IMG/VR virus record: IMGVR_UViG_2671180903_000016
Location: 1 to 21,640 of that record
DNA from: a virus
Taxonomy: Duplodnaviria > Heunggongvirae > Uroviricota > Caudoviricetes
Reading direction: 5' to 3' (one strand)
DNA: 21,640 nt
This document shows positions 5,154 to 21,640 of the stretch, piece after piece (the first letter of the stretch is position 1; each line of letters starts with the position of its first letter). Under the pieces are notes generated by a model, which saw only the letters and a list, made by a program, of their open reading frames with translations, was not told where the DNA came from and searched no databases. Both the position numbers and the translations under genes were made by a program.

Positions 5154-5935
5154 GCTGCCACCTTCTGCTCCGTGGCTTTCTGTTTCAGGAATCCAAGAAC
5201 CTTCTCTGCTTCGGCCTGGGACAGTTCTGACGACGCTCGAATGTAGCGGCGAAATATCTGGGAACAGAGCGGCAAGAGGTCGTCATCCCACGTTTTTTCC
5301 ATGGAAGTAAGAAGGGCGTTAATTTCCGACATGGTCTCTTCGTTAACCGGGGTGATGTCGCGTTCCGGCTGACGTTCTGTAGTATATGCGGTATTTTCGA
5401 CAATGCGCTCGGCTTCATCCTTGTCATAGATACCAGCAAATCCGAAGGCGAGACGGGCACACTGAATCATGGCTTTATGCCGTAACATCCGTTTGGGATG
5501 CGACTGCCACGGTCCGGTGATTTCTCTGCCTTCGCGGGTTTTGAATGGTTCGCGGCGGCATTCATCCATCCATTCGGTAACGCAGATCGGATGATTACGG
5601 TCCTTGCGGTAAATCCGGCATGTACAGGATTCATTGTCCTGCTCAAAGTCCATGCCATCAAACTGCTGGTTTTCATTGATGATGCGGGACCAGCCATCAA
5701 CGCCCACCACCGGAACGATGCCGTTCTGCTTATCAGGGAAGGCGTAAATTTCTTTCGTCCACGGATTAAGGCCGTACTGGTTGGCGACGATCAACAATAC
5801 GATGAACTGCGCATCGCTGGCATCGCCTTTAAATGCCGTCTGGCGAAGAGTGGTGATCAGTTCCTGTGGGTCGACAGAATCCATGCCGACACGTTCAGCC
5901 AGCTTCCCTGCCAGCGTTGCGAGTGCTGTACTCAT
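5150..5935 (-). CDS. bet: Lambda Bet (Red beta) single-strand annealing protein, 261 aa
   Basis: Translation near-identical to lambda Bet as recalled ([45 protein letters not shown]...); ATGA overlap with exo. Confidence 0.95.
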
Positions 5936-5940
5936 CCGTT

Positions 5941-6237
5941 TTATACCTCTGAATCAATATCAACCTGATGGTGAGCAATGGTTTCAACCATGTACCGGAT
6001 GTGTTCTGCCATGCGCTCCTGAAACTCAACATCGTCATCAAACGCACGGATAATGGCTTTTTTGCTGGCCCCGTGGCGTTGCAAATGATCGATGCATAGC
6101 GATTCAAACAGGTGCTGGGGCAGGCCTTTTTCCATGTCGTCTGCCAGTTCTGCCTCTTTCTCTTCACGGGCGATCTGCTGGTAGTGACGCGCCCAGCTCT
6201 GAGCCTCAAGACGATCCTGAATGTAATAAGCGTTCAT
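5941..6237 (-). CDS. gam: Gam (short 98-aa form), RecBCD inhibitor
   Basis: [21 protein letters not shown]... matches lambda Gam from its internal Met; the upstream long-form start is out of frame here. Confidence 0.9.
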
Positions 6238-6312
6238 GGCTGAACTCCTGAAAATGGCTGTGAAAATATCGCCCGCGAAATGCCAGGCTGATTAGGAAAA
6301 CAGGAAATGGGG

Positions 6313-6456
6313 TTAGTGAATGCTTTTGCTTGATCTCAGTTTCAGCATTAATATCCATTTTTTATAAGCGTCGACGGCTTCACGAAACATCTTTTCATCG
6401 CCAATAAAAGTGGCGATAGTGAATTTAGTCTGGATAGCCATAAGTGTTTGATCCAT
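6313..6456 (-). CDS. kil: Kil, host killing/FtsZ inhibitor (47 aa)
   Basis: [47 protein letters not shown] matches lambda Kil as recalled. The track ORF (6313..6582) is an N-terminal read-through artefact. Confidence 0.85.
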
Positions 6457-6589
6457 TCTTTGGGACTCCTGGCTGATTAAGTATGTCGATAAGGCGTTTC
6501 CATCCGTCACGTAATTTACGGGTGATTCGTTCAAGTAAAGATTCGGAAGGGCAGCCAGCAACAGGCCACCCTGCAATGGCATATTGCAT
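6425..6589 (-). CDS. cIII: CIII, FtsH (HflB) inhibitor (54 aa)
   Basis: [54 protein letters not shown] matches lambda CIII; AAGGAG RBS; overlaps the kil start as in lambda. Confidence 0.85.
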   Translation of the reverse strand: MQYAIAGWPVAGCPSESLLERITRKLRDGWKRLIDILNQPGVPKNGSNTYGYPD

Positions 6590-6661
6590 GGTGTGCTCCT
6601 TATTTATACATAACGAAAAACGCCTCGAGTGAAGCGTTATTGGTATGCGGTAAAGCCGCAC

Positions 6662-7030
6662 TCAGGCGGCCTTGATAGTCATATCATCTGAATCAAATAT
6701 TCCTGATGTATCGATATCGGTAATTCTTATTCCTTCGCTACCATCCATTGAAGGCCATCCTTCCTGACCATTTCCATCATTCCAGTCGAACTCACACACA
6801 ACACCATATGCATTTAAGTCGCTTGAAATTGCTATAAGCAGAGCATGTTGCGCCAGCATGATTAATACAGCATTTAATACAGAGCCGTGTTTATTGAGTC
6901 GGTATTCAGAGTCTGACCAGAAATTATTAATCTGGTGAAGTTTTTCCTCTGTCATTACGTCATGGTCGATTTCAATTTCTATTGATGCTTTCCAGTCGTA
7001 ATCAATGATGTATTTTTTGATGTTTGACAT
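6662..7030 (-). CDS. ea10: Ea10-like protein (122 aa)
   Basis: Translation matches lambda Ea10 as recalled (MSNIKKYIIDYDWKASIEIEIDHDVMTEEK...). Confidence 0.85.
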   Translation of the reverse strand: MSNIKKYIIDYDWKASIEIEIDHDVMTEEKLHQINNFWSDSEYRLNKHGSVLNAVLIMLAQHALLIAISSDLNAYGVVCEFDWNDGNGQEGWPSMDGSEGIRITDIDTSGIFDSDDMTIKAA

Positions 7031-7049
7031 CTGTTCATATCCTCACAGA

Positions 7050-7076
7050 TAAAAAATCGCCCTCACATTGGAGGGC
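7050..7076 (-). terminator. Rho-independent terminator-like hairpin (tL-type) between the 156-aa ORF and ea10
   Basis: On the minus strand GCCCTC-caatgt-GAGGGC followed by GATTTTTTAT; expected to be read through by N-modified polymerase. Confidence 0.5.
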
Positions 7077-7180
7077 AAAGAAGATTTCCAATAATCAGAA
7101 CAAGTCGGCTCCTGTTTAGTTACGAGCGACATTGCTCCGTGTATTCACTCGTTGGAATGAATACACAGTGCTTATTCGTA

Positions 7181-7651
7181 CTAATAAAATACCCAATTTT
7201 CTGTTTCTTGGTTGTGTCCAAAGTTATATTCAATATCTGGTGTTGATGTATCAATATTCTTCATACCATCAACAAGAGTTGATACAACAGCCAAATCTTG
7301 TTTGATTCTCATTAAATGGTATTTCTTCCGGCGCAATAAACTTTCAATGGCAAGTTTCTTCGTTGGGAATGCAAAAGATCTTTCTGCATTTTTTGCTACT
7401 TTCTTAATTGCATATCTATTTCTCCTTTGTTTCCATTCCTGTAACCACTGATTTGGTGCTGGTTTAAAATTAACAATCCAATGCGCAGGAACCAACCATG
7501 CATAATGCTCTGTCTGATGAAAAGCTATATATTGAAGTGCGAATATTTTTATCCCATCTTCTTCAACTGTCGCCTGGAATCTCCAGAAAACAGGCATTCC
7601 ATCATGTTCAGTTTCTGATTCAGGAAAAGGTACGCTCCATGATTTTGTCAT
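7181..7651 (-). CDS. Hypothetical protein (156 aa) in the ral/sieB slot
   Basis: ORF with GAGGTGAG RBS, downstream of N on the pL transcript; surrounding DNA looks AT-rich by eye; no family recognised. Confidence 0.6.
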   Translation of the reverse strand: MTKSWSVPFPESETEHDGMPVFWRFQATVEEDGIKIFALQYIAFHQTEHYAWLVPAHWIVNFKPAPNQWLQEWKQRRNRYAIKKVAKNAERSFAFPTKKLAIESLLRRKKYHLMRIKQDLAVVSTLVDGMKNIDTSTPDIEYNFGHNQETENWVFY

Positions 7652-7709
7652 ATCTCACCTCAAATAAGTGGTTTGCTGCCTAATTTCATTTTCTGGCGAC
7701 CAACACAAG

Positions 7710-8093
7710 TCACCTCGCCGTCAGTTGTTTTGATTTCCGGTAGCCTGCCGCGTAAATGGCTACGTTTGGAAGACATACACCAGTTTCTGGTTGCTTATGT
7801 CCAAACTCATTCGCGTACACAATGGCCGCTCGCTCCAGATTGCGTCTGTATTCTTTCTGTTGCCAGATCACGTCCTGTGCCATGAACTTAATTGGCTTAG
7901 CGTCTTCTATGCGCTCAGGCGTTTCGTGAGTACCTTTAGCCTGAATCTGCGCTCTGCTTAGAGTAGGGCGGTGTAATACTTCTGAACTTATTGCTTCTTC
8001 GCGGGCCAGTACGCCGTTAGCTAATGCCTTTGCCTTTAAACGCTCACGACGACGAGAACGTGAATTGCCTTTGAACTGAGTTCTGCGTGTCAT
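7710..8093 (-). CDS. N: Antitermination protein N (H-19B/933W type), 127 aa
   Basis: Arginine-rich N-terminal motif (RRTQFKGNSRSRRRERLKAK); first gene downstream of the nutL-like hairpin; strong CAGGAGG RBS; resembles Stx-phage N as recalled. Confidence 0.75.
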   Translation of the reverse strand: MTRRTQFKGNSRSRRRERLKAKALANGVLAREEAISSEVLHRPTLSRAQIQAKGTHETPERIEDAKPIKFMAQDVIWQQKEYRRNLERAAIVYANEFGHKQPETGVCLPNVAIYAAGYRKSKQLTAR

Positions 8094-8258
8094 ATAGACC
8101 TCCTGATGAACTTTGGTGGTGTGGTAGGTGGGAGACCCATTTCGACCTGTTTCGGCCTACTTCAATTCGGCAATAGTCCCGCAGGCCTCGCCGCTTTACG
8201 TGCGACATATTCCCGTCCATGAACCCTTCACCACACCCCAAAGTTCACTTTGGTTATT

Positions 8259-8273
8259 GCGCTTTGTCAGCGC
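8259..8273 (-). promoter_or_regulatory. nutL boxB-like hairpin (GCGCU-GACAA-AGCGC on the leftward transcript)
   Basis: 5-bp stem with 5-nt GACAA loop about 170 nt upstream of the N start; same loop as the hairpin downstream of cro. Confidence 0.5.
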
Positions 8274-8339
8274 CGTAGATTCATATTCGAATCGTTGTAT
8301 ATTTACCGCCCTGGTGAGTAATGCGTCCTGCTGATGGGT

Positions 8340-8400
8340 GAGCTTTATCGGAATGATAAATTAATGGCAATAGCAAAATGATAAATTCTCTTGGTTTTCA
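8340..8400 (-). promoter_or_regulatory. Putative oL/pL region with two direct AATGATAAATT repeats
   Basis: AATGATAAATT at 8352-8362 and 8377-8387; the same TGATAAAT motif recurs in the cI-cro intergenic region. Confidence 0.45.
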
Positions 8401-8559
8401 AATATCGTATTGATTCTTATGGTGTTTTATTTTGTTGTAGGAATTCGACAGGATAAATAAAGAGATTTGAGGGAGATCTGGATTGCGTTGTTTAGCAAGT
8501 TGTATCTATTTATTTTTCAACAAATACAATTGGTTATGTGTTTTTAGGTGTGGGATCGT

Positions 8560-8592
8560 GAGGCAAAGAAAACCCGGCGCTGAGGCCGGGTT
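8560..8592 (-). terminator. Rho-independent terminator ending the cI-cassette operon
   Basis: Minus strand: AACCCGGC-ctcagc-GCCGGGTT followed by TTCTTTG, directly after the stop of the 206-aa gene. Confidence 0.6.
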
Positions 8593-8598
8593 AATGCG

Positions 8599-9219
8599 TT
8601 AATGCTGGGGAGTGATTTTTTTGTTGTCTGTTGGCTGGGTATTTTGTGGCGGCGCTTGCAAAGTGGAAGGCTGTTGCAAAGGTGCGTGGTCTGACTTTAA
8701 AGCTGATACCAGCCCGGGAATCGCAACTATTACAGCGATAATGACACTAAAAATGGCTAATCGTATAGAAATACCCGACTGAACACCACTAATTGCGGTA
8801 TTAACCCCTGTTATTTGTCCTTGAATTCCTTCGAATCTCCCATTAATTGCTTTTATATCGCCAGCAGCGCTATCCATCTTTCCATCGATCTTGGACGATA
8901 GAGAGCTTATGGCTGCATTAAGTGATGCAAATTGGACATTAACGCTTTCACGAGATAGAGCCATGTCAGCCCTAATGGAAGAAGCAATAGACTCCATCTC
9001 TGCTTTATTAGCAGCTAAGCGAGCATCAAGTTCCTCTCTGCTGATCGTTCCCACTTCTTCCTCCGTTTGTGGCGGTTTTATGTAATTATTTTGCACCTTG
9101 GTGGGAGAATTATCAAATTCAGCCTCAAAATCGGAACCGCCAACAACCTTCAACCTCCGGCTTTCAGATATGTTGGTGTCTTGCTTTCCATGATTATTTA
9201 AATTACTGTCGTCACTCAT
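8599..9219 (-). CDS. Hypothetical membrane-anchored protein (206 aa); cassette gene C
   Basis: ATGA overlap with the upstream gene; N-terminal polar region, central helical region with heptad-like spacing, one hydrophobic segment (IRLAIFSVIIAVIVAIPGLVSAL) and a Pro/Gln-rich tail. Confidence 0.7.
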   Translation of the reverse strand: MSDDSNLNNHGKQDTNISESRRLKVVGGSDFEAEFDNSPTKVQNNYIKPPQTEEEVGTISREELDARLAANKAEMESIASSIRADMALSRESVNVQFASLNAAISSLSSKIDGKMDSAAGDIKAINGRFEGIQGQITGVNTAISGVQSGISIRLAIFSVIIAVIVAIPGLVSALKSDHAPLQQPSTLQAPPQNTQPTDNKKITPQH

Positions 9220-9650
9220 AATAGCTCTACGGTGAAAAATGATTCATTTTTATGAAGTTCATTTTTAGGGTCTTCATTATCTTGCAATATCCCTATAACA
9301 CTATACAGCCCTTTAGCTGGGACCCTAATTTCTTTCAATGTTACTATTACCTGTCCGCCAACCCCTGTTTCAAAATGGCTATCTTTCGTATCGATGAAAA
9401 GTGAAACTGATTCCGAAGAGCCGTCAGGGAATTGAATTTCCTCACCTTTTTTTATAATTAGGTGCGCGGGGATTACCATAATACCCAAATTATATCTTGA
9501 ATTTGGTTTCAACCCGATCATACCAACCCTGAAATCAATTGATAGCCGCGCAGGAAATTCATTGCATGTAAAATTAAGCGTCGGTTGGTTGGGTTCTTCG
9601 CTGCTATCAAATGGGGTTATAAAAGATATTCTTTCTAAATTAAGTGCCAT
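9216..9650 (-). CDS. Hypothetical protein (144 aa from the ATG at 9650; track ORF extends to 9704); cassette gene B
   Basis: Strong RBS GCAGGAGAATTT before the ATG at 9650; the stop overlaps the gene C start; no recognisable motif. Confidence 0.65.
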   Translation of the reverse strand: MALNLERISFITPFDSSEEPNQPTLNFTCNEFPARLSIDFRVGMIGLKPNSRYNLGIMVIPAHLIIKKGEEIQFPDGSSESVSLFIDTKDSHFETGVGGQVIVTLKEIRVPAKGLYSVIGILQDNEDPKNELHKNESFFTVELL

Positions 9651-9720
9651 AAATTCTCCTGCATCGCTGTATGCTCTACGAGCATCTCTGCGATCATCCA
9701 TCATCCAAACGTCTCTTCAC

Positions 9721-10062
9721 TCATCCGAAGAAGCAGCAATCCGGGTCAGCACGCACAAGCTCAAGCGCATCAGTCAGCGAAAGTTCAGTACTGTACTGAT
9801 GCCATTTCATATCCTTCCGCATCCAATAGATTTTCCATCTATCCAGAGAACGTATGTACTTGATTCTTGCTGATGGCAGGATGTTTGTTTCACCTGGGTT
9901 GCCCTGCCACACGGGGCGCTGTTCGCCGATATCTATCGTTTGGTCATTGATGCTATAAACAATATCCAGTTCATTGCGGATATGTTCAGGCGGCCTTATG
10001 CTTTCAATGAATTGGTGAACTTCTTTTTTGACCGCTTGATATTCAAGGTCAGTGAACGCCAT
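9721..10062 (-). CDS. Hypothetical protein (113 aa); cassette gene A, immediately downstream of cI
   Basis: Strong RBS GAGGAGG 5 nt before the ATG; same strand as cI, 60 nt after its stop; family not confidently recognised. Confidence 0.7.
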   Translation of the reverse strand: MAFTDLEYQAVKKEVHQFIESIRPPEHIRNELDIVYSINDQTIDIGEQRPVWQGNPGETNILPSARIKYIRSLDRWKIYWMRKDMKWHQYSTELSLTDALELVRADPDCCFFG

Positions 10063-10122
10063 CTATCCTCCTCACCCAAACGTTTCTTCTGGCCACTGGT
10101 TACCAGCTATGTGACGATGAAG

Positions 10123-10827
10123 TCACGAACTTTTCAGCCACTCCCTTGCCTCGATGTCATCCAGATGGCGAGATTGCTTCAGAATACCAGCTACATACTC
10201 CACCTTTGCTACTTGATGATAAGGCAACGTTATAGGCCTGTGATCCTGGTTAATGCTTGTAAATTGGTATTCTCCATCTCTGTCATAGCCAAGAACCTTA
10301 ATCATGTTGTGTCCTTCAACGGTTCTGACAAACACCTCGTCACCCGGGAATACTTTGGTGTTAGGCTCAATGAGTACATATTCTCCTGATTTTATTCTGG
10401 GCCACATGCTGTCTCCTTTCACACGAAGACCAAAGGCATCTGGATCATCGCTATAAATTTTGAGCCACCCATCGCGCTCTTCGGTCATCTCGATGGCACC
10501 ATCAACACCAAGAATTGCCTCACCAACCACGCGCACTAACCCTTTTCTTACCTGACCGACAAAAGTTAAAGAATCTGAGCATGATGCAATTGGTGTTACA
10601 TCATGTACCAAATCAAGCCACCCATTAGGTAACCCAAGCGCGGCTTCAAATTTTCTTGCTAGTTTATCCCCTATGTTTCGAGTGCTTTTTTCACCGGAGA
10701 CTTGCGTGAGTTGAGAAGGGCTAACCCCAAGCTTATCGGCAAAGCTTGCATTAGTGTTACCCGCGATTTTTTTATGCTCATCTAGCAAAAACGCCAGATT
10801 CGATTTGCGAATATCTTTGTTTTCCAT
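10123..10827 (-). CDS. cI: CI-type prophage repressor (HTH N-terminus, LexA/S24-like C-terminus), 234 aa
   Basis: N-terminal HTH region and a C-terminal GDSMWP motif with a downstream Lys, typical of autocleaving S24 repressors; divergent from the cro-like gene across an operator-rich gap. Confidence 0.85.
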   Translation of the reverse strand: MENKDIRKSNLAFLLDEHKKIAGNTNASFADKLGVSPSQLTQVSGEKSTRNIGDKLARKFEAALGLPNGWLDLVHDVTPIASCSDSLTFVGQVRKGLVRVVGEAILGVDGAIEMTEERDGWLKIYSDDPDAFGLRVKGDSMWPRIKSGEYVLIEPNTKVFPGDEVFVRTVEGHNMIKVLGYDRDGEYQFTSINQDHRPITLPYHQVAKVEYVAGILKQSRHLDDIEAREWLKSS

Positions 10828-10940
10828 CTCACAATTTTCCCTCTATTTAGCAAATGGATAAATACGCAATATGATAAATTTACATTGCGGATGATTTATC
10901 AAAATGGTAAAGTTGTTCTGTGTGATAAACGGAGGCACTA
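10828..10940. promoter_or_regulatory. oR/pRM/pR divergent control region
   Basis: 113-bp gap between divergent cI and cro with repeated TGATAAAT-like half-sites (10853-10863, 10871-10880, inverted at 10894-10901, 10921-10930). Confidence 0.6.
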
Positions 10941-11174
10941 ATGAGTAATGAACTACTACGCTGGCGAAAAGAGGCTTCTAGTGAGGAATGGAAGCGACTC
11001 GCCGCATTAGCGAAAACTTCAGTTGGCTATCTTGACCAGATTGCATATGGATTTCGAAGAGCTTCCCCTGATAAAGCGAATGCAATCGAAGAAGCTACTC
11101 GTAATTTCACGGGTTATAAACCTGTGAAAAAGGAAAACCTAGTGTTCGTATCGCGTAGAGCATCGGCTGCATAA
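10941..11174 (+). CDS. cro: Cro-like HTH regulator (77 aa)
   Basis: First rightward gene divergent from cI; GGAGG RBS; small protein with a likely HTH. Confidence 0.7.
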   Translation: MSNELLRWRKEASSEEWKRLAALAKTSVGYLDQIAYGFRRASPDKANAIEEATRNFTGYKPVKKENLVFVSRRASAA

Positions 11175-11181
11175 GTAACAC

Positions 11182-11227
11182 CGCTCTTTTCACAATGGAC
11201 ATTCGTCCTACGTCGCTGACAAAGCGA
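11182..11227 (+). promoter_or_regulatory. nutR-like site: boxA (CGCTCTTTTCACA) plus boxB hairpin (TCGCT-GACAA-AGCGA)
   Basis: boxA-like CGCTCTT motif 8 nt after the cro stop, then a 5-bp stem/5-nt loop hairpin at 11213-11227. Confidence 0.55.
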
Positions 11228-11312
11228 GTCCCAATATATCTGACCAACTAAGGCCATATGCGTTTCCACGCATACCTTTCAACTAGCTATTCACTATTGG
11301 AAATCTTAAGAA

Positions 11313-11609
11313 ATGGAACAAACAAGTTACAGCAAACTATCACAGCGAGAAATTGATCGCGCTGAAACTGATTTACTCATCAACCTGTCAACGCTTACCC
11401 AGCGCGGTCTGGCAAAGATGATTGGCTGTCATGAATCGAAGATAAGCAGAACGGACTGGAGATTTATTGCTTCGGTCTTGTGTGCTTTCGGAATGGCATC
11501 AGACATCAGTCCGATTAGCAGGGCTTTTAAGTATGCGCTTGATGAAATCACAAAGAAAAAATCCCCGGTGGCCGCCGGGGACTCTAAGCAAATTGATATG
11601 CAATTCTGA
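11313..11609 (+). CDS. cII: CII-like transcriptional activator (98 aa)
   Basis: Position after cro/nutR; the C-terminus (KKKSPVAAGDSKQIDMQF) parallels the lambda CII C-terminus as recalled. Confidence 0.8.
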   Translation: MEQTSYSKLSQREIDRAETDLLINLSTLTQRGLAKMIGCHESKISRTDWRFIASVLCAFGMASDISPISRAFKYALDEITKKKSPVAAGDSKQIDMQF

Positions 11610-11641
11610 GGGAATTACTGGATCAATCCACAGGAGTCATT

Positions 11642-12580
11642 ATGACAAATACAGCAAAAATACTCAACTTCGGCAGAGGTAACTTTGCCGAACAGGAGCG
11701 TAATGTGGCAGATCTCGATGATGGTTACGCCAGACTATCAAATATGCTGATTGAGGCTTATTCAGGCGCAGATCTGACCAAGCGACAGTTTAAAGTGCTG
11801 CTTGCCATTCTGCGTAAAACCTATGGGTGGAATAAACCAATGGACAGAATCACCGATTCTCAACTTAGCGAGATTACAAAGTTACCTGTCAAACGGTGCA
11901 ATGAAGCCAAGTTAGAACTCGTCAGAATGAATATTATCAAGCAGCAAGGCGGCATGTTTGGACCAAATAAAAACATCTCAGAATGGTGCATCCCTCAAAA
12001 CGAGGGAGGTTCCCCTAAAATGAGGGACATCCCTCAAAACGAGGGAAAATCCCCTAAAACGAGGGATAAAACATCCCTCAAATTAGGGGATTGCTATCCC
12101 TCAAAACAGGGGGACACAAAAGACACTATTACAAAAGAAAAAAGAAAAGATTATTCGTCCGAGAATTCTGGCGAATCCTCTGACCAGCCAGAAAACGATC
12201 TTTCTGTGGTTAAACCGGATGCTGCAATTCAGAGCGGCAGCAAGTGGGGAACAGCAGAAGACCTGACCGCCGCAGAGTGGATGTTTGACATGGTGAAGAC
12301 CATCGCACCATCAGCCAGAAAACCGAATTTTGCAGGGTGGGCTAACGATATCCGCCTGATGCGTGAACGTGACGGACGTAACCACCGCGACATGTGCGTG
12401 CTGTTCCGCTGGGCATGCCAGGACAACTTCTGGTCCGGTAACGTGCTAAGTCCGGCCAAACTCCGCGACAAGTGGACCCAACTCGAAATCAACCGTAACA
12501 AGCAACAGGCTGGCGTGACAGCTGGAAAACCAAAACTCGACCTGACAAACACTGACTGGATTTACGGGGTGGATTTATGA
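11642..12580 (+). CDS. O: Replication initiator O (312 aa)
   Basis: Near-identical to lambda O at both termini as recalled; iterons lie inside the gene; AGGAG RBS. Confidence 0.95.
   Translation: MTNTAKILNFGRGNFAEQERNVADLDDGYARLSNMLIEAYSGADLTKRQFKVLLAILRKTYGWNKPMDRITDSQLSEITKLPVKRCNEAKLELVRMNIIKQQGGMFGPNKNISEWCIPQNEGGSPKMRDIPQNEGKSPKTRDKTSLKLGDCYPSKQGDTKDTITKEKRKDYSSENSGESSDQPENDLSVVKPDAAIQSGSKWGTAEDLTAAEWMFDMVKTIAPSARKPNFAGWANDIRLMRERDGRNHRDMCVLFRWACQDNFWSGNVLSPAKLRDKWTQLEINRNKQQAGVTAGKPKLDLTNTDWIYGVDL
11991..12114 (+). repeat. Replication origin iterons (six roughly 18-bp dyad repeats TCCCTCAAAACGAGGGA-like), followed by an AT-rich stretch to about 12160
   Basis: Repeat starts at 11991, 12011, 12030, 12050, 12074 and 12097, each with an internal inverted repeat (TCCC...GGGA). 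Confidence 0.85.
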
Positions 12581-13278
12581 AAAACATCGCCGCACAGATG
12601 GTTAACTTTGACCGTGAGCAGATGCGTCGGATCGCCAACAACATGCCGGAACAGTACGACGAAAAGCCGCAGGTACAACAGGTAGCGCAGATCATCAACG
12701 GTGTGTTCAGCCAGTTACTGGCAACTTTCCCGGCGAGTCTGGCTAACCGGGACCAGAACGAACTGAATGAAATCCGCCGCCAGTGGGTTCTGGCTTTCCG
12801 GGAAAACGGGATCACCACAATGGAACAGGTTAACGCAGGAATGCGCGTAGCCCGTCGGCAGAATCGACCATTTCTGCCATCACCCGGGCAGTTTGTTGCA
12901 TGGTGCCGGGAAGAAGCATCCGTTATCGCCGGACTGCCAAACGTCAGCGAGCTGGTTGATATGGTTTACGAGTATTGCCGGAAGCGAGGCCTGTATCCGG
13001 ATGCGGAGTCTTATCCGTGGAAATCAAACGCGCACTACTGGCTGGTTACCAACCTGTATCAGAACATGCGGGCCAATGCGCTTACTGATGCGGAATTACG
13101 CCGTAAGGCCGCAGATGAGCTTGTCCATATGACTGCGAGAATTAACCGTGGTGAGACTATACCTGAACCAGTAAAACAACTTCCTGTCATGGGCGGCAGA
13201 CCTCTAAATCGTGTTCAGGCGCTGGCGAAGATCGCAGAAATTAAAGCTAAGTTCGGACTGAAAGGAGCAAGTGTATGA
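12577..13278 (+). CDS. P: Replication protein P (DnaB helicase loader), 233 aa
   Basis: Near-identical to lambda P as recalled; ATGA overlap with O. Confidence 0.95.
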   Translation: MKNIAAQMVNFDREQMRRIANNMPEQYDEKPQVQQVAQIINGVFSQLLATFPASLANRDQNELNEIRRQWVLAFRENGITTMEQVNAGMRVARRQNRPFLPSPGQFVAWCREEASVIAGLPNVSELVDMVYEYCRKRGLYPDAESYPWKSNAHYWLVTNLYQNMRANALTDAELRRKAADELVHMTARINRGETIPEPVKQLPVMGGRPLNRVQALAKIAEIKAKFGLKGASV

Positions 13279-13565
13279 CGGGCAAAGAGGCAATTATTCA
13301 TTACCTGGGGACGCATAATAGCTTCTGTGCGCCGGACGTTGCCGCGCTAACAGGCGCAACAGTAACCAGCATAAATCAGGCCGCAGCTAAAATGGCACGG
13401 GCAGGTCTTCTGGTTATCGAAGGTAAGGTCTGGCGAACGGTGTATTACCGGTTTGCTACCAGGGAAGAACGGGAAGGAAAGGTGAGCACGAACCTGATTT
13501 TTAAGGAGTGTCGCCAGAGTGCCGCGATGAAACGGGTATTGGCGGTATATGGAGTTAAAAGATGA
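13275..13565 (+). CDS. ren: Ren (96 aa)
   Basis: Matches lambda Ren as recalled (MTGKEAIIHYLGTHNSFCAPDVAALTGATVTSINQAAAKMARAG...); ATGA overlap with P. Confidence 0.9.
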   Translation: MTGKEAIIHYLGTHNSFCAPDVAALTGATVTSINQAAAKMARAGLLVIEGKVWRTVYYRFATREEREGKVSTNLIFKECRQSAAMKRVLAVYGVKR

Positions 13566-13590
13566 CCATCTACATCACTGAGCTAATGAC

Positions 13591-13622
13591 AGGCCTGCTG
13601 GTAATCGCAGGCCTTTTTATTT
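13591..13622 (+). terminator. Rho-independent terminator (tR2-like) after ren
   Basis: AGGCCTGC-tggtaatc-GCAGGCCT followed by TTTTTATTT. Confidence 0.65.
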
Positions 13623-13635
13623 GGGGGAGAGGGAA

Positions 13636-13914
13636 GTGAACGATAGCTACCGACAGTTTGAAAACTGGTGGTCAAAAGACAAAAGCCAGTTCACGGGAGA
13701 CGATGAATTAAAAGAGTTTGCCTGGGTGATATGGCAGGCATCGCGCTCTGCTATTGAACTGGATATCGACTGGCCCGAATCGAATGACGACCTTTGGAAA
13801 GATGGTGAAGAAGGTGCTTATGCGATGGGTTATGAGGATGGGCGTGACAAAACGGTAATTGCAGTAATGAAAGCCATCAGGGCCGCAGGAATCAAAGAAA
13901 AGAATTTCGATTAA
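13636..13914 (+). CDS. Hypothetical nin-region protein (about 92 aa; GTG start at 13636 or TTG at 13621)
   Basis: ORF preceded by GGGGGAGAGGGAA; no in-frame ATG near the 5' end; acidic, Trp-rich product. Confidence 0.45.
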   Translation: MNDSYRQFENWWSKDKSQFTGDDELKEFAWVIWQASRSAIELDIDWPESNDDLWKDGEEGAYAMGYEDGRDKTVIAVMKAIRAAGIKEKNFD

Positions 13915-14046
13915 GCAAATATCACTTCAATAAATCGCTTTTAAGGCATCACAATCGCTCTGTGGTGAGGTAAGCACGTGCAAGGCATGCCGATAAGCAG
14001 CGAGAATGAAAAATGCGTCAGAATGCGTTTGAGGAGGTTTTAAGAA

Positions 14047-14262
14047 ATGAGTACGATAGCTGAGCTTGTCAGGGCTAATTTTCGTGAAGAGTTGGTGCGT
14101 TGGTATCGGTATCGTTCATCGTCCAGTTTGCCGCTTGATGAGTTGTATGAGCATTCACCTGCCGCACGACGCTATCCGCGTGACCGTGTTCTTCGACGGT
14201 TGTTCAAACTCAACAATGAGTTTCAGCGCAACAGAATTATCCGGAGTCTGGATTTTAAGTGA
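14047..14262 (+). CDS. Hypothetical nin-region protein (71 aa)
   Basis: ATG preceded by GAGGAGG RBS; Arg-rich small protein. Confidence 0.5.
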   Translation: MSTIAELVRANFREELVRWYRYRSSSSLPLDELYEHSPAARRYPRDRVLRRLFKLNNEFQRNRIIRSLDFK

Positions 14263-14272
14263 AGGAGTGAGC

Positions 14273-14443
14273 ATGAGCGACCTATCATTAACCCAGCCAA
14301 AGCTAAAAGAATGTCCGTTTTGCGGCGGTAATGCTCGTCTGTGGGTTGAGGCCGGAATAAATATTGATGTGTGGGGCTATGCAGAATGTGACCTCTGTGA
14401 AGCCAGGGGGGGCATGGGCACCATCAGTTGCTGCGGCGGCTGA
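14273..14443 (+). CDS. Lar-family restriction-alleviation-like protein, apparently frameshifted (56 aa in frame)
   Basis: AAGGAG RBS; CPFCGG...C..C motif in the N-terminus; the family's expected AAxxWNRRA C-terminus is encoded in the next frame (14427-14510), downstream of a G7 tract at 14406-14412. Confidence 0.5.
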   Translation: MSDLSLTQPKLKECPFCGGNARLWVEAGINIDVWGYAECDLCEARGGMGTISCCGG

Positions 14444-14466
14444 AAAATGGAACCGGAGAGCAGGAG

Positions 14467-14913
14467 ATGAAGCAAACCTTTCTGCTTCGCAACGAAGCAA
14501 TCAGAAATAACGCCATAGACGCCATTCTCTCACTACCCATCGACGACAAGTCACCCCACGAAGTCCACGTTAAAGAACCCAAGCGCAGCAAAGCGCAGAA
14601 TGACCGCATGTGGCCGATGCTGAACGATGTTTCGCGTCAGGTGCTATGGCATGGTCAACGGCTGGCGCCGGAAGACTGGAAAGACCTGTTCACTGCCCTG
14701 TGGCTTAAGACCAAAAAACTGGAGCAACGAAGTGTGCCTGGTATCGACGGTGGCGTTGTCATGCTTGGCGTGCGTACCAGCAAAATGCGGAAGGCCAGCA
14801 TGACTGAGCTTATCGAAATCATGTTCTGGTTCGGCTCAGAGCGCAACGTGCGGTGGAGTGATGACTCTTGGCGAGAGTATGAATGGTCACAACGAAAAGG
14901 GAGAGCTGCATGA
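14467..14913 (+). CDS. ninB: NinB (Orf) recombination mediator (148 aa)
   Basis: GGAGAGCAGGAG RBS before the ATG at 14467; the central and C-terminal region aligns with lambda NinB as recalled (...LNDVSRQVLWHGQRL...). The track ORF starts 13 codons upstream. Confidence 0.85.
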   Translation: MKQTFLLRNEAIRNNAIDAILSLPIDDKSPHEVHVKEPKRSKAQNDRMWPMLNDVSRQVLWHGQRLAPEDWKDLFTALWLKTKKLEQRSVPGIDGGVVMLGVRTSKMRKASMTELIEIMFWFGSERNVRWSDDSWREYEWSQRKGRAA

Positions 14914-15437
14914 CTATCAAATCAAATACGCCATCACACGACAAGGACTGCTGGCAAACGCCGCTTTGGCTTTTTGATGCACTGGATATTGAGTTTGGAT
15001 TCTGGCTGGATTCGGCAGCGAGCGACAAAAATGCTCTGTGCGCTCACTGGTTAACTGAGGCCGACGACGCGCTAAATTCTGAGTGGATAAGCCACGGTGC
15101 AATCTGGAATAACCCACCGTACAGCAATATCAGGCCGTGGGTGGAAAAAGCCGCTGAGCAGTGCATACAACAGCGACAGACGGTAGTGATGCTTGTGCCA
15201 GAGGATATGTCAGTCGGATGGTTCAGCAAGGCTCTGGAGAGTGTTGACGAAGTTCGCATCATCACTGATGGACGGATTAATTTTATCGAACCATCGACAG
15301 GGCTGGAGAAGAAGGGAAACAGCAAAGGCTCCATGCTGCTGATTTGGCGACCGTTCATCAGTCCTCGACGAATGTTTACTACTGTATCCAAAGCGGCATT
15401 GATGGCGATCGGGCAGGGCGTCAGGAGGGCGGCATGA
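14910..15437 (+). CDS. Phage Dam-like N6-adenine DNA methyltransferase (175 aa)
   Basis: NPPY motif (IWNNPPYS); ATGA overlap with ninB; size typical of phage orphan Dam-family methyltransferases. Confidence 0.8.
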
Positions 15438-15616
15438 GGCGACAGCAAAGAAGCATCACCGACATCATCTGCGAAAACTGCAAATACCTTCCAACGAAAC
15501 GCTCCAGAAATAAACGCAAGCCAATCCCAAAAGAATCTGACGTAAAAACCTTCAACTACACGGCTCATCTGTGGGATATCCGGTGGCTAAGACATCGTGC
15601 GAGGAAAACAAGGTGA
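15434..15616 (+). CDS. ninE: NinE (60 aa)
   Basis: [51 protein letters not shown]... matches lambda NinE as recalled; ATGA overlap with the methyltransferase gene. Confidence 0.85.
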
Positions 15617-15708
15617 TTGACGCGATGATTTATTCGGGGCTATATTCCTCACGCGCCAGCAAAATCTGGCGTCGGGATTAGCACCCCGGATGTTTACGGA
15701 GCGATATG

Positions 15709-15729
15709 AGACGCGCCCGCGTCTTTTTT
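15709..15729 (+). terminator. Terminator-like hairpin after ninE
   Basis: AGACGC-gccc-GCGTCT followed by TTTTTT. Confidence 0.5.
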
Positions 15730-15875
15730 CATATCGTTTGCACAGTCACATTCGCGATTTATGGCGGGCTGTGTGGGGGAGCTGAAAGGCTCGCCGGTTT
15801 CCGTACCCGGTAGTGCTAACCCCGCACAGTTCGCCACCATGATGATTAGCACCTGACGGTGGCGATAATGTCCAA

Positions 15876-16598
15876 ATGTACGGAGTTATCGTTATGGCCA
15901 CTCAGATTTCTGTCGAAACTCTTTCCCCAATTACACACAACCAAATTCCCGTTATCACTACCGAGTTACTGGCACAGCTTTACTGTACCGAGATCAACAA
16001 CATCAAAGTAAATTACACCCGTAATTCCGAGCGTTTTGTTGAGGGTAAACACTTTTTCAAGGTTGTTGGTGATGAGTTGAAAATTTTGCGGGTTACTTTA
16101 AGTAACTCACAAAATTTGCAACCATCTTTAAGAGGGTTACAAATTTCCCCGAAAGCCCGCTCCCTCATCCTCTGGACAGAACGCGGAGCAGCCCGTCACG
16201 CCAAAATGCTCGAAACCGATCAGGCGTGGGAAGTGTTCGAAAAACTGGAAGACTGCTATTTCAGCCAGTGCGAGAAAAATACTGGCAAACAAGAGAAGAA
16301 GCTCAACGGGCTTTCCGCAAAAGAAACAGACAGCCTTGTATGGCTGTGGGATTATGCTAACCGCTCACAGGCATTATTCCGCGAATTGTATCCAGCGCTA
16401 AAGCAAATTCAATCGAACTATTCCGGCAGATGTTACGACTACGGTCATGAGTTCTCGTATGTTATTGGAATGGCGAGAGACGTTTTAATCAATCACACAC
16501 GAGATGTTGATATTAATGAGCCAGACGGACCAACGAATCTTTCCGCATGGGTAAGGCTTAAGAACAAAGAATTACCTCCTTCACTACATCGCTACTGA
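15876..16598 (+). CDS. ORF6N/KilA-N-type domain protein (antirepressor-like), 240 aa (alternative start at 15894)
   Basis: N-terminal segment ([40 protein letters not shown]) fits the ORF6N-domain pattern as recalled; followed by a strong terminator. Confidence 0.6.
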
Positions 16599-19059: not shown

Positions 19060-19135
19060 GGCCCTTTAGCTCAGTGGTGAGAGCGAGCGACTCATAATCG
19101 CCAGGTCGCTGGTTCAAATCCAGCAAGGGCCACCA
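19060..19135 (+). tRNA. ileZ: tRNA-Ile2-like (anticodon CAU)
   Basis: Hand-folded cloverleaf: acceptor GGCCCTT/AAGGGCC, anticodon loop CTCATAA, T-loop TTCAAAT, 3' CCA; close to E. coli tRNA-Ile2 as recalled. Confidence 0.85.
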
Positions 19136-19144
19136 TATCACATA

Positions 19145-19221
19145 CCGCCATTAGCTCATCAGGACAGAGCGCCAGCCTTCGAAGCTGGTTGCGCGGGGTT
19201 CGGGTCCCCGGTGGCGGTCCA
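19145..19221 (+). tRNA. tRNA-Arg-like (anticodon UCG by hand fold), atypical
   Basis: Cloverleaf with perfect anticodon stem CCAGC/GCTGG and loop CTTCGAA; unusual C1-G72 pair and T-loop TTCGGGT. Confidence 0.55.
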
Positions 19222-19234
19222 TTATCGGTATTCT

Positions 19235-19311
19235 GCGTTGTTAGCTCAGCCGGACAGAGCAATTGCCTTCTAAGCAATCGGTCACTGGTTCGAATCCAGT
19301 ACAACGCGCCA
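19235..19311 (+). tRNA. tRNA-Arg (anticodon UCU)
   Basis: Acceptor GCGTTGT/ACAACGC, anticodon stem ATTGC/GCAAT, loop CTTCTAA, T-loop TTCGAAT, 3' CCA. Confidence 0.85.
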
Positions 19312-19550
19312 CACTTATTTTCCCTGGCTCGCTTTTGCGGGCCTTTTTTTTAAATGTCTCACAATTCAGGCGGTTGACTGTTGTCTGGTTTGCGGGGAGT
19401 TTGTTAAAAGAAACTGGCATGGTGAATCCCCCTGTGCGGAGGGGCAATCAGCAACCAGGTATATGTGATAATCGCGGATTCAGGTGCTGATACTGAATTC
19501 ACCGGGAGGCACCCGGCACCATGCAAGAAAAAGAATGTGCATGCAAACAT

Positions 19551-19574
19551 GCCCCTCTCCGGAGGGGCTTTTTT
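19551..19574 (+). terminator. Rho-independent terminator between the tRNA cluster and the esterase gene
   Basis: GCCCCTC-tccg-GAGGGGC followed by TTTTTT. Confidence 0.7.
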
Positions 19575-19701
19575 ATGGGTAAAAAATGCCCGAATGGGTT
19601 CGGGCAATAGCATGAGATACTGATATTGTTGTGTTGTTATCGTGTGGATTTTAACCAGGGTTTATCAGGCTGCGCAACTGCGTGGCCTTTTTTCATTTCT
19701 T

Positions 19702-19746
19702 GGGCTGTAGTCCCCGTGTGTCATTCAGGCTTCCGGACTACAGCCC
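19702..19746. repeat. Perfect 12-bp inverted repeat (GGGCTGTAGTCC ... GGACTACAGCCC) with 21-nt spacer
   Basis: Read directly; sits about 45 nt upstream of the esterase start codon. Confidence 0.7.
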
Positions 19747-19789
19747 ACTCCATATCTGATTTAATACACTATCCCGGCCGGGAGGAATA

Positions 19790-21640
19790 ATGACATTTAA
19801 ACATTATGATGTTGTCAGGGCGGCGTCGCCGTCAGACCTTGCGGAAAAGCTGACACACAAACTGAAAGAGGGCTGGCAGCCGTTTGGTAGTCCGGTGGCC
19901 ATAACCCCTTATACCCTGATGCAGGCGATTACAGCAGAAGGTGATGTGGTGGTCAGTGGTGCAACTGAGCCGGATTGGTACTACGTCATCGTACTGGCCG
20001 GGCAGTCCAATGCCATGGCTTACGGTGAAGGGCTTCCGCTGCCGGATTCATACGATGCTCCGGATCCGCGCATTAAACAGCTGGCGCGCCGCAGTACAGT
20101 GACGCCGGGTGGGGCTGCCTGCAGATATAACGATATTATTCCGGCCGACCACTGCCTGCATGATGTGCAGGATATGAGTACGCTGAATCATCCGAAGGCA
20201 GACCTGAGCAAAGGGCAGTACGGCTGTGTCGGCCAGGGTTTACATATTGCCAAAAAACTGCTCCCGTATATCCCGAATAACGCGGGGATCCTGCTGGTAC
20301 CATGCTGTCGTGGTGGTTCGGCATTCACCCAGGGCGCGGAGGGGACATTCAGTGCGGACACGGGGGCCAGCCAGGATTCGGCACGCTGGGGTGTGGGTAA
20401 ACCGTTATATCAGGACCTGATTGCGCGCACTAAAGCTGCATTACAGAAGAACCCGAAAAATGTGTTGCTGGCGGTGTGCTGGATGCAGGGAGAGTTTGAC
20501 ATGAGCGCCGCCACCCACGCACAGCAACCTGCGCTGTTTACAGCCATGCTGACACAGTTTCGTGCTGACCTCTCCGTGTTTAACGCGCAGTGCCATGGTG
20601 GCAGTGCTGCAGATGTGCCGTGGATTTGTGGTGACACGACGTATTACTGGAAAAATACATACGCTACCCAGTACGACACCGTGTACGGCGGGTATAAAAA
20701 CAGGGAGAGTGAGGGCGTTTATTTTGTGCCCTTCATGACAGACGGTAACGGCGTCAATACCGCCACTAACGCGCCGGCAGAAGATCCGGATATTCCGGCA
20801 TCAGGATATTACGGTGCGGCATCGAGAACGAATGGAAACCAGGTATCATCAAACCGCCCGACACATTTCAGTTCATGGGCGCGCAGGAGCATTATTCCGG
20901 ATCGTCTGGCAACCGCTATTCTGAACGCAGCCGGGCGCACCTCAGCCTTCATCAGTGGTAAGGCACCGGAAATTAAACCCTCGCCCGGCGGCAACACGCC
21001 ATCGGGTCCGTCTGCAGATACGTCCGTTCGCACAATCTCCCTGCTGCCGGCAGCCGGAGAGGCTGCTGCGCAGGGCTGGAGCATTAAGGATGGCGGAATT
21101 CAGTTGTCAGATGGTGTATTTAAGATCACCAAGCAGAGCAATAAAACCTGGTCCCTGACGCATCCGGTGGATGACGCAATTACCCTGCTGACACAGGGCG
21201 GCAGACTGACCTGTAAGTTCCGCCTGTCAGGCGCACTGACCAACAATCAGTTCGGGCTGGGGATTTATCTGTATACGGATGCTCCCGTTCCTGATGGTGT
21301 GGCGATGACGGGTACCGGTAATCCGTTCCTGATGTCGTACTTCACTCAGACCACTGACGGCAGAGTGAATCTGATGCATCACAGGAAAGCCGGAAACACG
21401 AAGCTGGGGGAGTTCGGCGATTACGGTAACGACTGGCAGACGCTGGAGCTGGTGTTCACCGCCGGCAGTGCCACGGTTACTCCGAAACTGAATGGAGTGG
21501 CTGGCCCGGCATTCCAGGTTATAAAAGACAGTCTGACACTGGGACTGAATGCGCTGACGCTGACGGATGTTACAAAAAATGCAGCGTATGGCGTTGAGAT
21601 AGAAAGTCTGATGCTGGAGATAAATGCACCGGCAGCATAA
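19790..21640 (+). CDS. NanS-p-like 9-O-acetyl sialate esterase (N-terminal DUF1737-like, SASA/SGNH esterase core), 616 aa
   Basis: GGGAGG RBS; GQSN motif (VLAGQSNAMAYGEG) and overall architecture match the large esterase ORF found downstream of stx in Stx phages, as recalled; stop at the window end. Confidence 0.75.
   Translation: MTFKHYDVVRAASPSDLAEKLTHKLKEGWQPFGSPVAITPYTLMQAITAEGDVVVSGATEPDWYYVIVLAGQSNAMAYGEGLPLPDSYDAPDPRIKQLARRSTVTPGGAACRYNDIIPADHCLHDVQDMSTLNHPKADLSKGQYGCVGQGLHIAKKLLPYIPNNAGILLVPCCRGGSAFTQGAEGTFSADTGASQDSARWGVGKPLYQDLIARTKAALQKNPKNVLLAVCWMQGEFDMSAATHAQQPALFTAMLTQFRADLSVFNAQCHGGSAADVPWICGDTTYYWKNTYATQYDTVYGGYKNRESEGVYFVPFMTDGNGVNTATNAPAEDPDIPASGYYGAASRTNGNQVSSNRPTHFSSWARRSIIPDRLATAILNAAGRTSAFISGKAPEIKPSPGGNTPSGPSADTSVRTISLLPAAGEAAAQGWSIKDGGIQLSDGVFKITKQSNKTWSLTHPVDDAITLLTQGGRLTCKFRLSGALTNNQFGLGIYLYTDAPVPDGVAMTGTGNPFLMSYFTQTTDGRVNLMHHRKAGNTKLGEFGDYGNDWQTLELVFTAGSATVTPKLNGVAGPAFQVIKDSLTLGLNALTLTDVTKNAAYGVEIESLMLEINAPAA

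Follow-up and report, generated by a model that had tools for sequence, protein, structure and literature searches.

The Lar-family gene (lar) of the prophage analyzed here carries one extra G in a short run of G residues, and there is good reason for confidence that this G7 allele is a genuine, heritable loss-of-function pseudogene allele, formed by a stable insertion at a small mutational hotspot, and not a regulated switch. The frameshifted allele is already known and already annotated, and it does not represent a novel type of genetic switch. All the positions given below are those of the window, i.e., the whole stretch of 21,640 nucleotides of phage DNA that was analyzed.

The split lar gene and its intact counterpart

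The features of the locus are listed in Table 1. In the original prediction, an ORF at 14273-14443, a neighbouring open frame at 14361-14510 and a run of seven G at 14406-14412 were described, and all these coordinates were confirmed. The neighbouring frame is closed upstream by a TAA codon at 14358-14360, is open from 14361 to a TAA stop at 14508-14510, and ends in ...AWAPSVAAAAEKWNRRAGDEANLSASQRSNQK*. Residues 1-46 of the 56-aa ORF are native and include the four cysteines of a zinc ribbon (C14, C17, C39, and C42); residues 47-56 (GMGTISCCGG) form an out-of-frame tail. The AAGGAG sequence present before the ATG favors 14273 as the real start of the gene over the upstream start used in NC_000924. 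GGGGGGG at 14406-14412 is the sole G7/C7 run of the window; since dinucleotide shuffles of the window contain 1.8 G7 runs on average, the tract is uninformative by itself and it is the split homology that carries the case.

Table 1. Positions in the window of the lar locus, its neighbours and the sRNA genes found at the stx position.
Feature	Position	Strand	Details
DUF7301 gene, upstream of lar	14047..14262	+	PF23975 at 91.4 bits
Shine-Dalgarno AAGGAG	14261..14266	+	6 nt upstream of ATG 14273
Whole Lar-family pseudogene	14273..14510	+	238 nt; intact allele 237 nt, 78 aa
Shortened ORF, 56 aa	14273..14443	+	MSDLSLTQPKLKECPFCGGNARLWVEAGINIDVWGYAECDLCEARGGMGTISCCGG*; TGA stop 14441-14443
G7 homopolymer, +1 insertion site	14406..14412	+	intact allele G6, codons AGG GGG G(CA)
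Displaced C-terminal coding part	14412..14510	+	AWAPSVAAAAEKWNRRAGDEANLSASQRSNQK*; +1 frame, holds the WNxR motif
ninB	14467..14913	+	first 44 nt overlapped by the intact lar ORF
STnc100 sRNA	19388-19580		Rfam, 149.9 bits
AgvB sRNA	19581-19642	-	Rfam, 96.5 bits

When one G is removed from the run, the resulting 78-aa protein matches PF14354 (Lar_restr_allev) over positions 2-58/58 with 41.3 bits (cut-off 28.6) and TIGR03655 (anti_R_Lar) over positions 1-55/55 with 62.3 bits (cut-off 39.6). The 56-aa ORF of the window aligns only with positions 2-33/58 of PF14354 (25.9 bits) and with positions 1-39/55 of TIGR03655 (39.3 bits), which in both cases is just under the cut-off (28.6 and 39.6, respectively). 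The PHROGs profiles give the same picture for the 56-aa ORF and the repaired protein. Since the repaired protein matches both profiles over their full length, the split homology is not attributable to chance, and these matches, together with the existence of natural G6 alleles, bear out the proposal that a Lar-family gene is divided here between two frames.

The distribution of the motifs is consistent with these profile matches. The Cys4 zinc ribbon, which was found in the 14273-14443 ORF in the form of C14-P-F-C17-G-G and C39-D-L-C42, is common to the window ORF, RalR (the Lar protein of the cryptic prophage Rac), and the distant homologues. The A-x-x-W-N-x-R motif (AEKWNRRA in the window) lies in the +1 frame, downstream of the G7 run, whereas a single frame holds both this motif and the zinc ribbon in RalR, the G6 allele, and all six distant homologues, which come from Clostridia, Asticcacaulis, Lysobacteraceae, and Solobacterium. 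The family architecture from which the original prediction started, namely CPFCGG and A-x-x-WNRRA in one frame, therefore holds true for RalR/Lar of Rac and for the homologues from Clostridia, Asticcacaulis, and Lysobacteraceae. Given that WNRRA and the zinc ribbon occupy different frames, the locus descends from a member of the Lar family and does not encode a complete one.

The intact allele WP_001281772.1 (78 aa, 237 nt) differs from the 238 nt of the window solely by having G6 instead of G7, which corroborates the suggestion that one nucleotide was inserted in the G tract. This allele is carried by Xuzhou21 and by the EDL933 prophage CP-933V, as well as by VT2-Sakai-type phages. Its genomic position is the same as that of the window gene and its nucleotides are identical outside the G run, but it has G6 and one uninterrupted frame containing the WNRRA motif. 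Alignment with the intact homologues consistently placed WNRRA in frame, and none of them was found to end early without this motif. The scan of the GTDB species-representative genomes for relatives yielded 7 loci only, with no relatives at intermediate distances; among the solved structures, no Lar-family entry was found, and the only similarity detected was a weak one between the zinc ribbon and eL43.

In the mechanism we propose, a G6 run, itself a chance product of the codons AGG-GGG-G(CA), would have gained one G. Translation starting at the ATG at 14273 would then leave the native frame after Gly46 and stop at 14441-14443, and the predicted 56-aa product would keep the Cys4 zinc ribbon and lose the C-terminal WNxR region. 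The toxicity of RalR is reduced when position 14, 37, 39, 49, 51, or 52 is altered, and the K52Q substitution abolishes the DNase activity (PMC4041452). Residues Y39, R49, N51, and K52 of RalR align with W48, K58, N60, and R61 of the intact 78-aa protein, all of which are located downstream of the frameshift. Since the counterparts of these critical residues are all missing from it, the G7 product should be inactive with regard to any RalR-like activity the intact protein may have. Judging from this homology with RalR, the 56-aa product is thus expected to be inactive; the zinc ribbon it retains could preserve some function.

Prophage context and existing annotation

Whole-window searches and local BLAST showed that the window is a mosaic relative of 933W, with 98.6% identity to this phage over 11165-15511. 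The idea that the window might be 933W itself was ruled out, as the 98.6% identity is confined to this part and the stx position is empty. The best coverage of the window by any complete E. coli genome amounts to at most 89%. The 331 nt surrounding lar (14230-14560) are 100% identical to those of phage 933W and EDL933, including the G7 run. The flanking haplotype of the window differs from that of 933W, and its closest relatives are an O45:H2 Stx1a prophage and the IMG/VR contig L101; the latter, also a G7 sequence, matches positions 5840-15525 of the window at 99.98% identity.

The order of the genes was read off the ORF list and, by collinearity, the 933W annotation: int ... exo-bet-gam ... 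N ... cI, cro, cII, O, P, ren, and a hypothetical gene are followed by DUF7301, the frameshifted lar, ninB, an N6-adenine methyltransferase gene, ninE, ant, roi, ninG, ninH, Q, and three tRNA genes. The window is a 933W-like lambdoid prophage, and this gene order places lar in its rightward early (nin) region. The gene would therefore be expressed early after infection or induction, beside the methyltransferase gene. The order of the genes in the DUF7301-lar-ninB module is identical across all the related loci. In the G7 allele, the lar ORF ends 23 nt short of the ninB start codon, and the change in spacing from a 44-nt overlap to a 23-nt gap could alter the translational coupling between the two genes.

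The region 19349-19790, which is located downstream of the three tRNA genes and corresponds to the position of stx2AB in 933W, contains no toxin genes, and two sRNA genes were identified there (Table 1). Since the stx genes are absent at the position they occupy in 933W, the window corresponds to an stx-negative 933W-like prophage. The three phage tRNA genes (19060-19311) are those of Met (CAT), Arg (TCG), and Arg (TCT); the gene equivalent to that of tRNA-Met (CAT) is annotated ileZ in 933W, and the Arg-TCT tRNA would read AGA/AGG, AGG being the codon immediately preceding the G run. Elsewhere in the window, Rfam matches to c4-a1b1, isrK, and C4 antisense RNA were found at 15640-15841, just upstream of an antirepressor-like ORF (15876-16598), and this combination looks like a P1/P7-type C4-ant immunity module, here putatively placed within the nin region. 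A lambda cIII thermoregulator RNA element is present on the minus strand at 6544-6602 (88.5 bits).

The 238 nt of the window pseudogene are already annotated elsewhere. In EDL933, PGAP labels the identical sequence (EDL933_RS33195) "Lar family restriction alleviation protein, frameshifted," and this 933W pseudogene (L0092 / ST933Wp32) has the same DUF7301-lar-ninB-methyltransferase surroundings as the window gene. PGAP likewise marks the locus as frameshifted in every other G7 genome examined, among them 2011C-4251, ERL04-3476, TT12A, JNE132847, 99E2750, Z1323CEC0006, and Z1323CEC0001. The exact 56-aa product is present on 812 public contigs (NCBI, IMG, ENA, and Logan; e.g., AIG67568.1). In NC_000924.1, positions 15997-16356 (14084-14443 in the window) are annotated as a 119-aa "Lar-like restriction alleviation protein" (L0092 / ST933Wp32). 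This ORF shares the frame of the 56-aa product but begins inside the DUF7301 gene, which is read in a different frame there; it runs to the stop created by the frameshift and is not marked as a pseudogene; the entry looks like a mis-annotated pseudogene with a start placed too far upstream. The mis-started version has been propagated as AAD25437.1 / AAG57235.1. In the literature searches performed, no paper discussing this lar frameshift was found. The finding matters little outside annotation hygiene, where the 119-aa entry of NC_000924 (ST933Wp32) and many protein records show the remnant of a frameshift as a normal protein.

Distribution and origin of the extra G

The alleles were counted in three collections. 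Using probes of 86-88 nt, the locus was identified in 491 records of complete E. coli genomes, among which G6 was found as an exact match in 324 and G7 in 22, to which Z1323CEC0001, where G7 is accompanied by a linked G>A SNP, has to be added; a divergent allele was the best match at this place in 144 records, G8 was found in none, and G5 was nowhere the best match. The absence of G5 from the complete genomes can be stated because the exact G6 and exact G7 records and Z1323CEC0001 fill the 95-99% band of the G8 probe. In IMG/VR, exact-pattern scans for G5 to G8 yielded 73 G6 and 4 G7, with no G5 or G8. These scans replaced a scan for the IMG/VR relatives (the best 80 loci), which was set aside for allele counting since the 80 loci, all of them full-length matches, are biased toward intact alleles. 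A gapped-pattern scan of metagenome contigs gave 10 G6, 1 G7, and no other lengths. G7 is thus a minority allele in all three collections, accounting for about 5-9% of the related prophages (23/491 in the complete E. coli records).

The run itself is not conserved. The divergent allele, in which it is interrupted as AGG GTG GCA (GGGTGG, Gly46Val), has exact matches in 198 E. coli records and at 8 IMG/VR loci, and in Intestinirhabdus alba the sequence is AGG GGT GCA (AGGGGTG). These interruptions indicate that the homopolymer is an accident of codon choice and not a conserved feature. The EDL933-lineage consensus assemblies, namely AF125520, CP111102, CP008957, CP124741/2, ATCC 43894, and strain 277, are all G7. 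EDL933 carries a second copy of the gene, which is intact (G6), in the Stx1 prophage CP-933V (NZ_CP008957.1, 3017431-3017667), beside the G7 copy in 933W, and the latter stays G7 despite the presence of the intact copy on the same chromosome. Redundancy of this kind was considered as a general cause of the loss and rejected, as many G7 genomes have a single copy.

The backbones carrying G7 vary, showing either O/P replication genes, a DnaB-type helicase, or a toprim primase together with an HNH endonuclease. The 867-nt DUF7301-lar-ninB module shows G7 in combination with at least five flanking haplotypes, and G6 twins, which are identical or one SNP apart over the 867 nt, were found for all four haplotypes examined. 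This spread was considered as proof of recurrent slippage and rejected as such, because the SNPs of the module have themselves been reshuffled among the haplotypes and recombinational spread is directly visible in Z1323CEC0001 (NZ_CP148507.1). In this genome, one and the same rare G7 + G>A allele, whose SNP falls 23 nt beyond the run (equivalent of position 14435), is present in two different co-resident prophages (loci L178 and L179), which suggests gene conversion between prophages. The distribution of G7 among haplotypes therefore fits recombination and recurrent mutation equally well. In the O45:H2 strain FWSEC0003 (NZ_CP031916.1), lar carries a second frameshift in addition to G7, due to an extra T at the equivalent of position 14363. 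This second frameshift and the duplicated allele of Z1323CEC0001 can be taken as signs of decay and spread, respectively.

Indel rates in E. coli climb exponentially with the length of homopolymers (PMC8510543), and the G6 run may constitute a modest slippage hotspot. In the scenario we favor, descent and inter-prophage recombination, with recurrence as a possible addition, would have maintained the G7 allele and distributed it through the lambdoid prophages, where it would behave as a pseudogene allele that is tolerated because the gene is accessory. Only insertions were observed across the datasets (28 G7, no G5), and this pattern departs from what would be expected under a purely neutral slippage model; since the independent events may number only one to five, the asymmetry is of little statistical weight. 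As a separate observation, with G5 or G8 the Lar zinc ribbon would be joined in frame to full-length NinB, giving proteins of 212-213 aa, and G7 is the sole nearby run length that yields a short dead-end product. These NinB fusions might explain why only G7 has been seen.

The original prediction also envisaged slipped-strand switching, whereby mispairing would toggle a phase-variable contingency tract between G6 (ON) and G7 (OFF), the population keeping both states of an anti-restriction or toxin gene. The natural coexistence of the two states, the similar frequency of the OFF state in the three datasets, and the occurrence of G7 on several haplotypes and phage backbones, with G6 twins that are nearly identical to them, are all in keeping with such a switch. 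It is nevertheless quite unlikely, because only two lengths exist, G5 and G8 being absent from the complete genomes, IMG/VR, and the metagenome contigs, and because seven G make a short tract for a contingency locus when the host is proficient in mismatch repair. The tract is, moreover, not maintained, as can be seen from the GGGTGG and AGGGGTG alleles, and the independently made EDL933-lineage assemblies agree on G7. A second frameshift has accumulated in FWSEC0003, and recombination of the kind observed in Z1323CEC0001 can explain the spread across haplotypes. A maintained low-rate reversible switch, turning a RalR-like DNase or anti-restriction gene off in a fixed share (about 5-9%) of Stx-type prophages, with G7 as the sole tolerated OFF state since G5 and G8 would yield the NinB fusions, is a very doubtful variant of this reading.

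As homopolymers are error-prone on several platforms, and some of the G7 records come from series that are possibly long-read-only assemblies, the extra G might also be an error of sequencing or assembly in a gene that is really intact, which was another of the options initially put forward. We consider this extremely improbable, since G7 recurs on Sanger and later platforms: it is present in the Sanger-era 933W sequence (AF125520), in several independent EDL933 assemblies, in the 23 complete genomes of varied origin, in four IMG/VR contigs and one metagenome contig, and contig L101 matches the window at 99.98% identity. Errors would also be expected to produce G5, which was not seen, and other Z1323-series genomes read G6. 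Nor is it at all probable that a full-length protein is still made from the G7 allele, whether the G run were to cause +1 ribosomal frameshifting or slippage during transcription. After moving one base downstream, a tRNA-Gly from GGG 14408-14410 would again be perfectly paired (GGG 14409-11); GCA TGG would be read next, which restores the native protein exactly, and the rare codon AGG precedes the run. However, GGC, which follows the slip site as the A-site codon of the zero frame, is common, so that no pause is expected, and there is no positioned stimulatory element. At known programmed frameshift sites, the shifted configuration is conserved; here it is the minority state, most of the alleles and all the distant homologues being in one frame. 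The occurrence of G7 in nature means that Stx-type lambdoid prophages can do without their Lar-family gene. If the product were a DNase and anti-restriction factor like RalR, the difference between G6 and G7 could affect the EcoKI-type host range or the fitness of the lysogen.

Comparison with known systems

In the poly-G/C phase-variable contingency genes of Neisseria, Haemophilus, Campylobacter, and Helicobacter, the length of a run within the coding region sets the frame. In the lar gene of the window, too, the frame depends on the number of G in a coding run. In contrast to the contingency loci, however, this run is short and unconserved, only two states of it were seen, and the assemblies show no switching within a lineage.

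Ral of phage lambda is a functional analogue and for practical purposes not a homologue. The lambda ral gene lies in the leftward operon. Ral is involved in restriction alleviation and modification enhancement with type IA systems (PMC12707154), and 24% identity between Ral and RalR has been reported (PMC4041452).

A known relative is Lar/RalR of the cryptic prophage Rac (E. coli K-12 b1348), the only member for which a role in alleviating type IA (EcoKI) restriction and enhancing modification has been suggested (King and Murray, 1995, as cited in PMC4041452). RalR later proved to be a non-specific DNase toxin whose type I antitoxin is the sRNA RalA (PMC4041452). The only search bearing on a RalA-like sRNA partner of the window gene, an Rfam scan of 13900-14950 at the gathering thresholds, gave no family match. 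RalR and the intact Stx-phage protein belong to the same family (PF14354/TIGR03655) and show 36% identity over 58 residues, and they have in common a CPFCG...CxxC zinc ribbon as well as the (E/A)xWN(K/R)R motif. The repaired 78-aa protein is not a RalR equivalog, its score against NF007260 being 27.6 bits vs. a cut-off of 113 (18.3 for the 56-aa ORF). The two genes also differ in their location: ralR adjoins recT in Rac, whereas the lar gene of the Stx phages is situated in the nin region, beside ninB.
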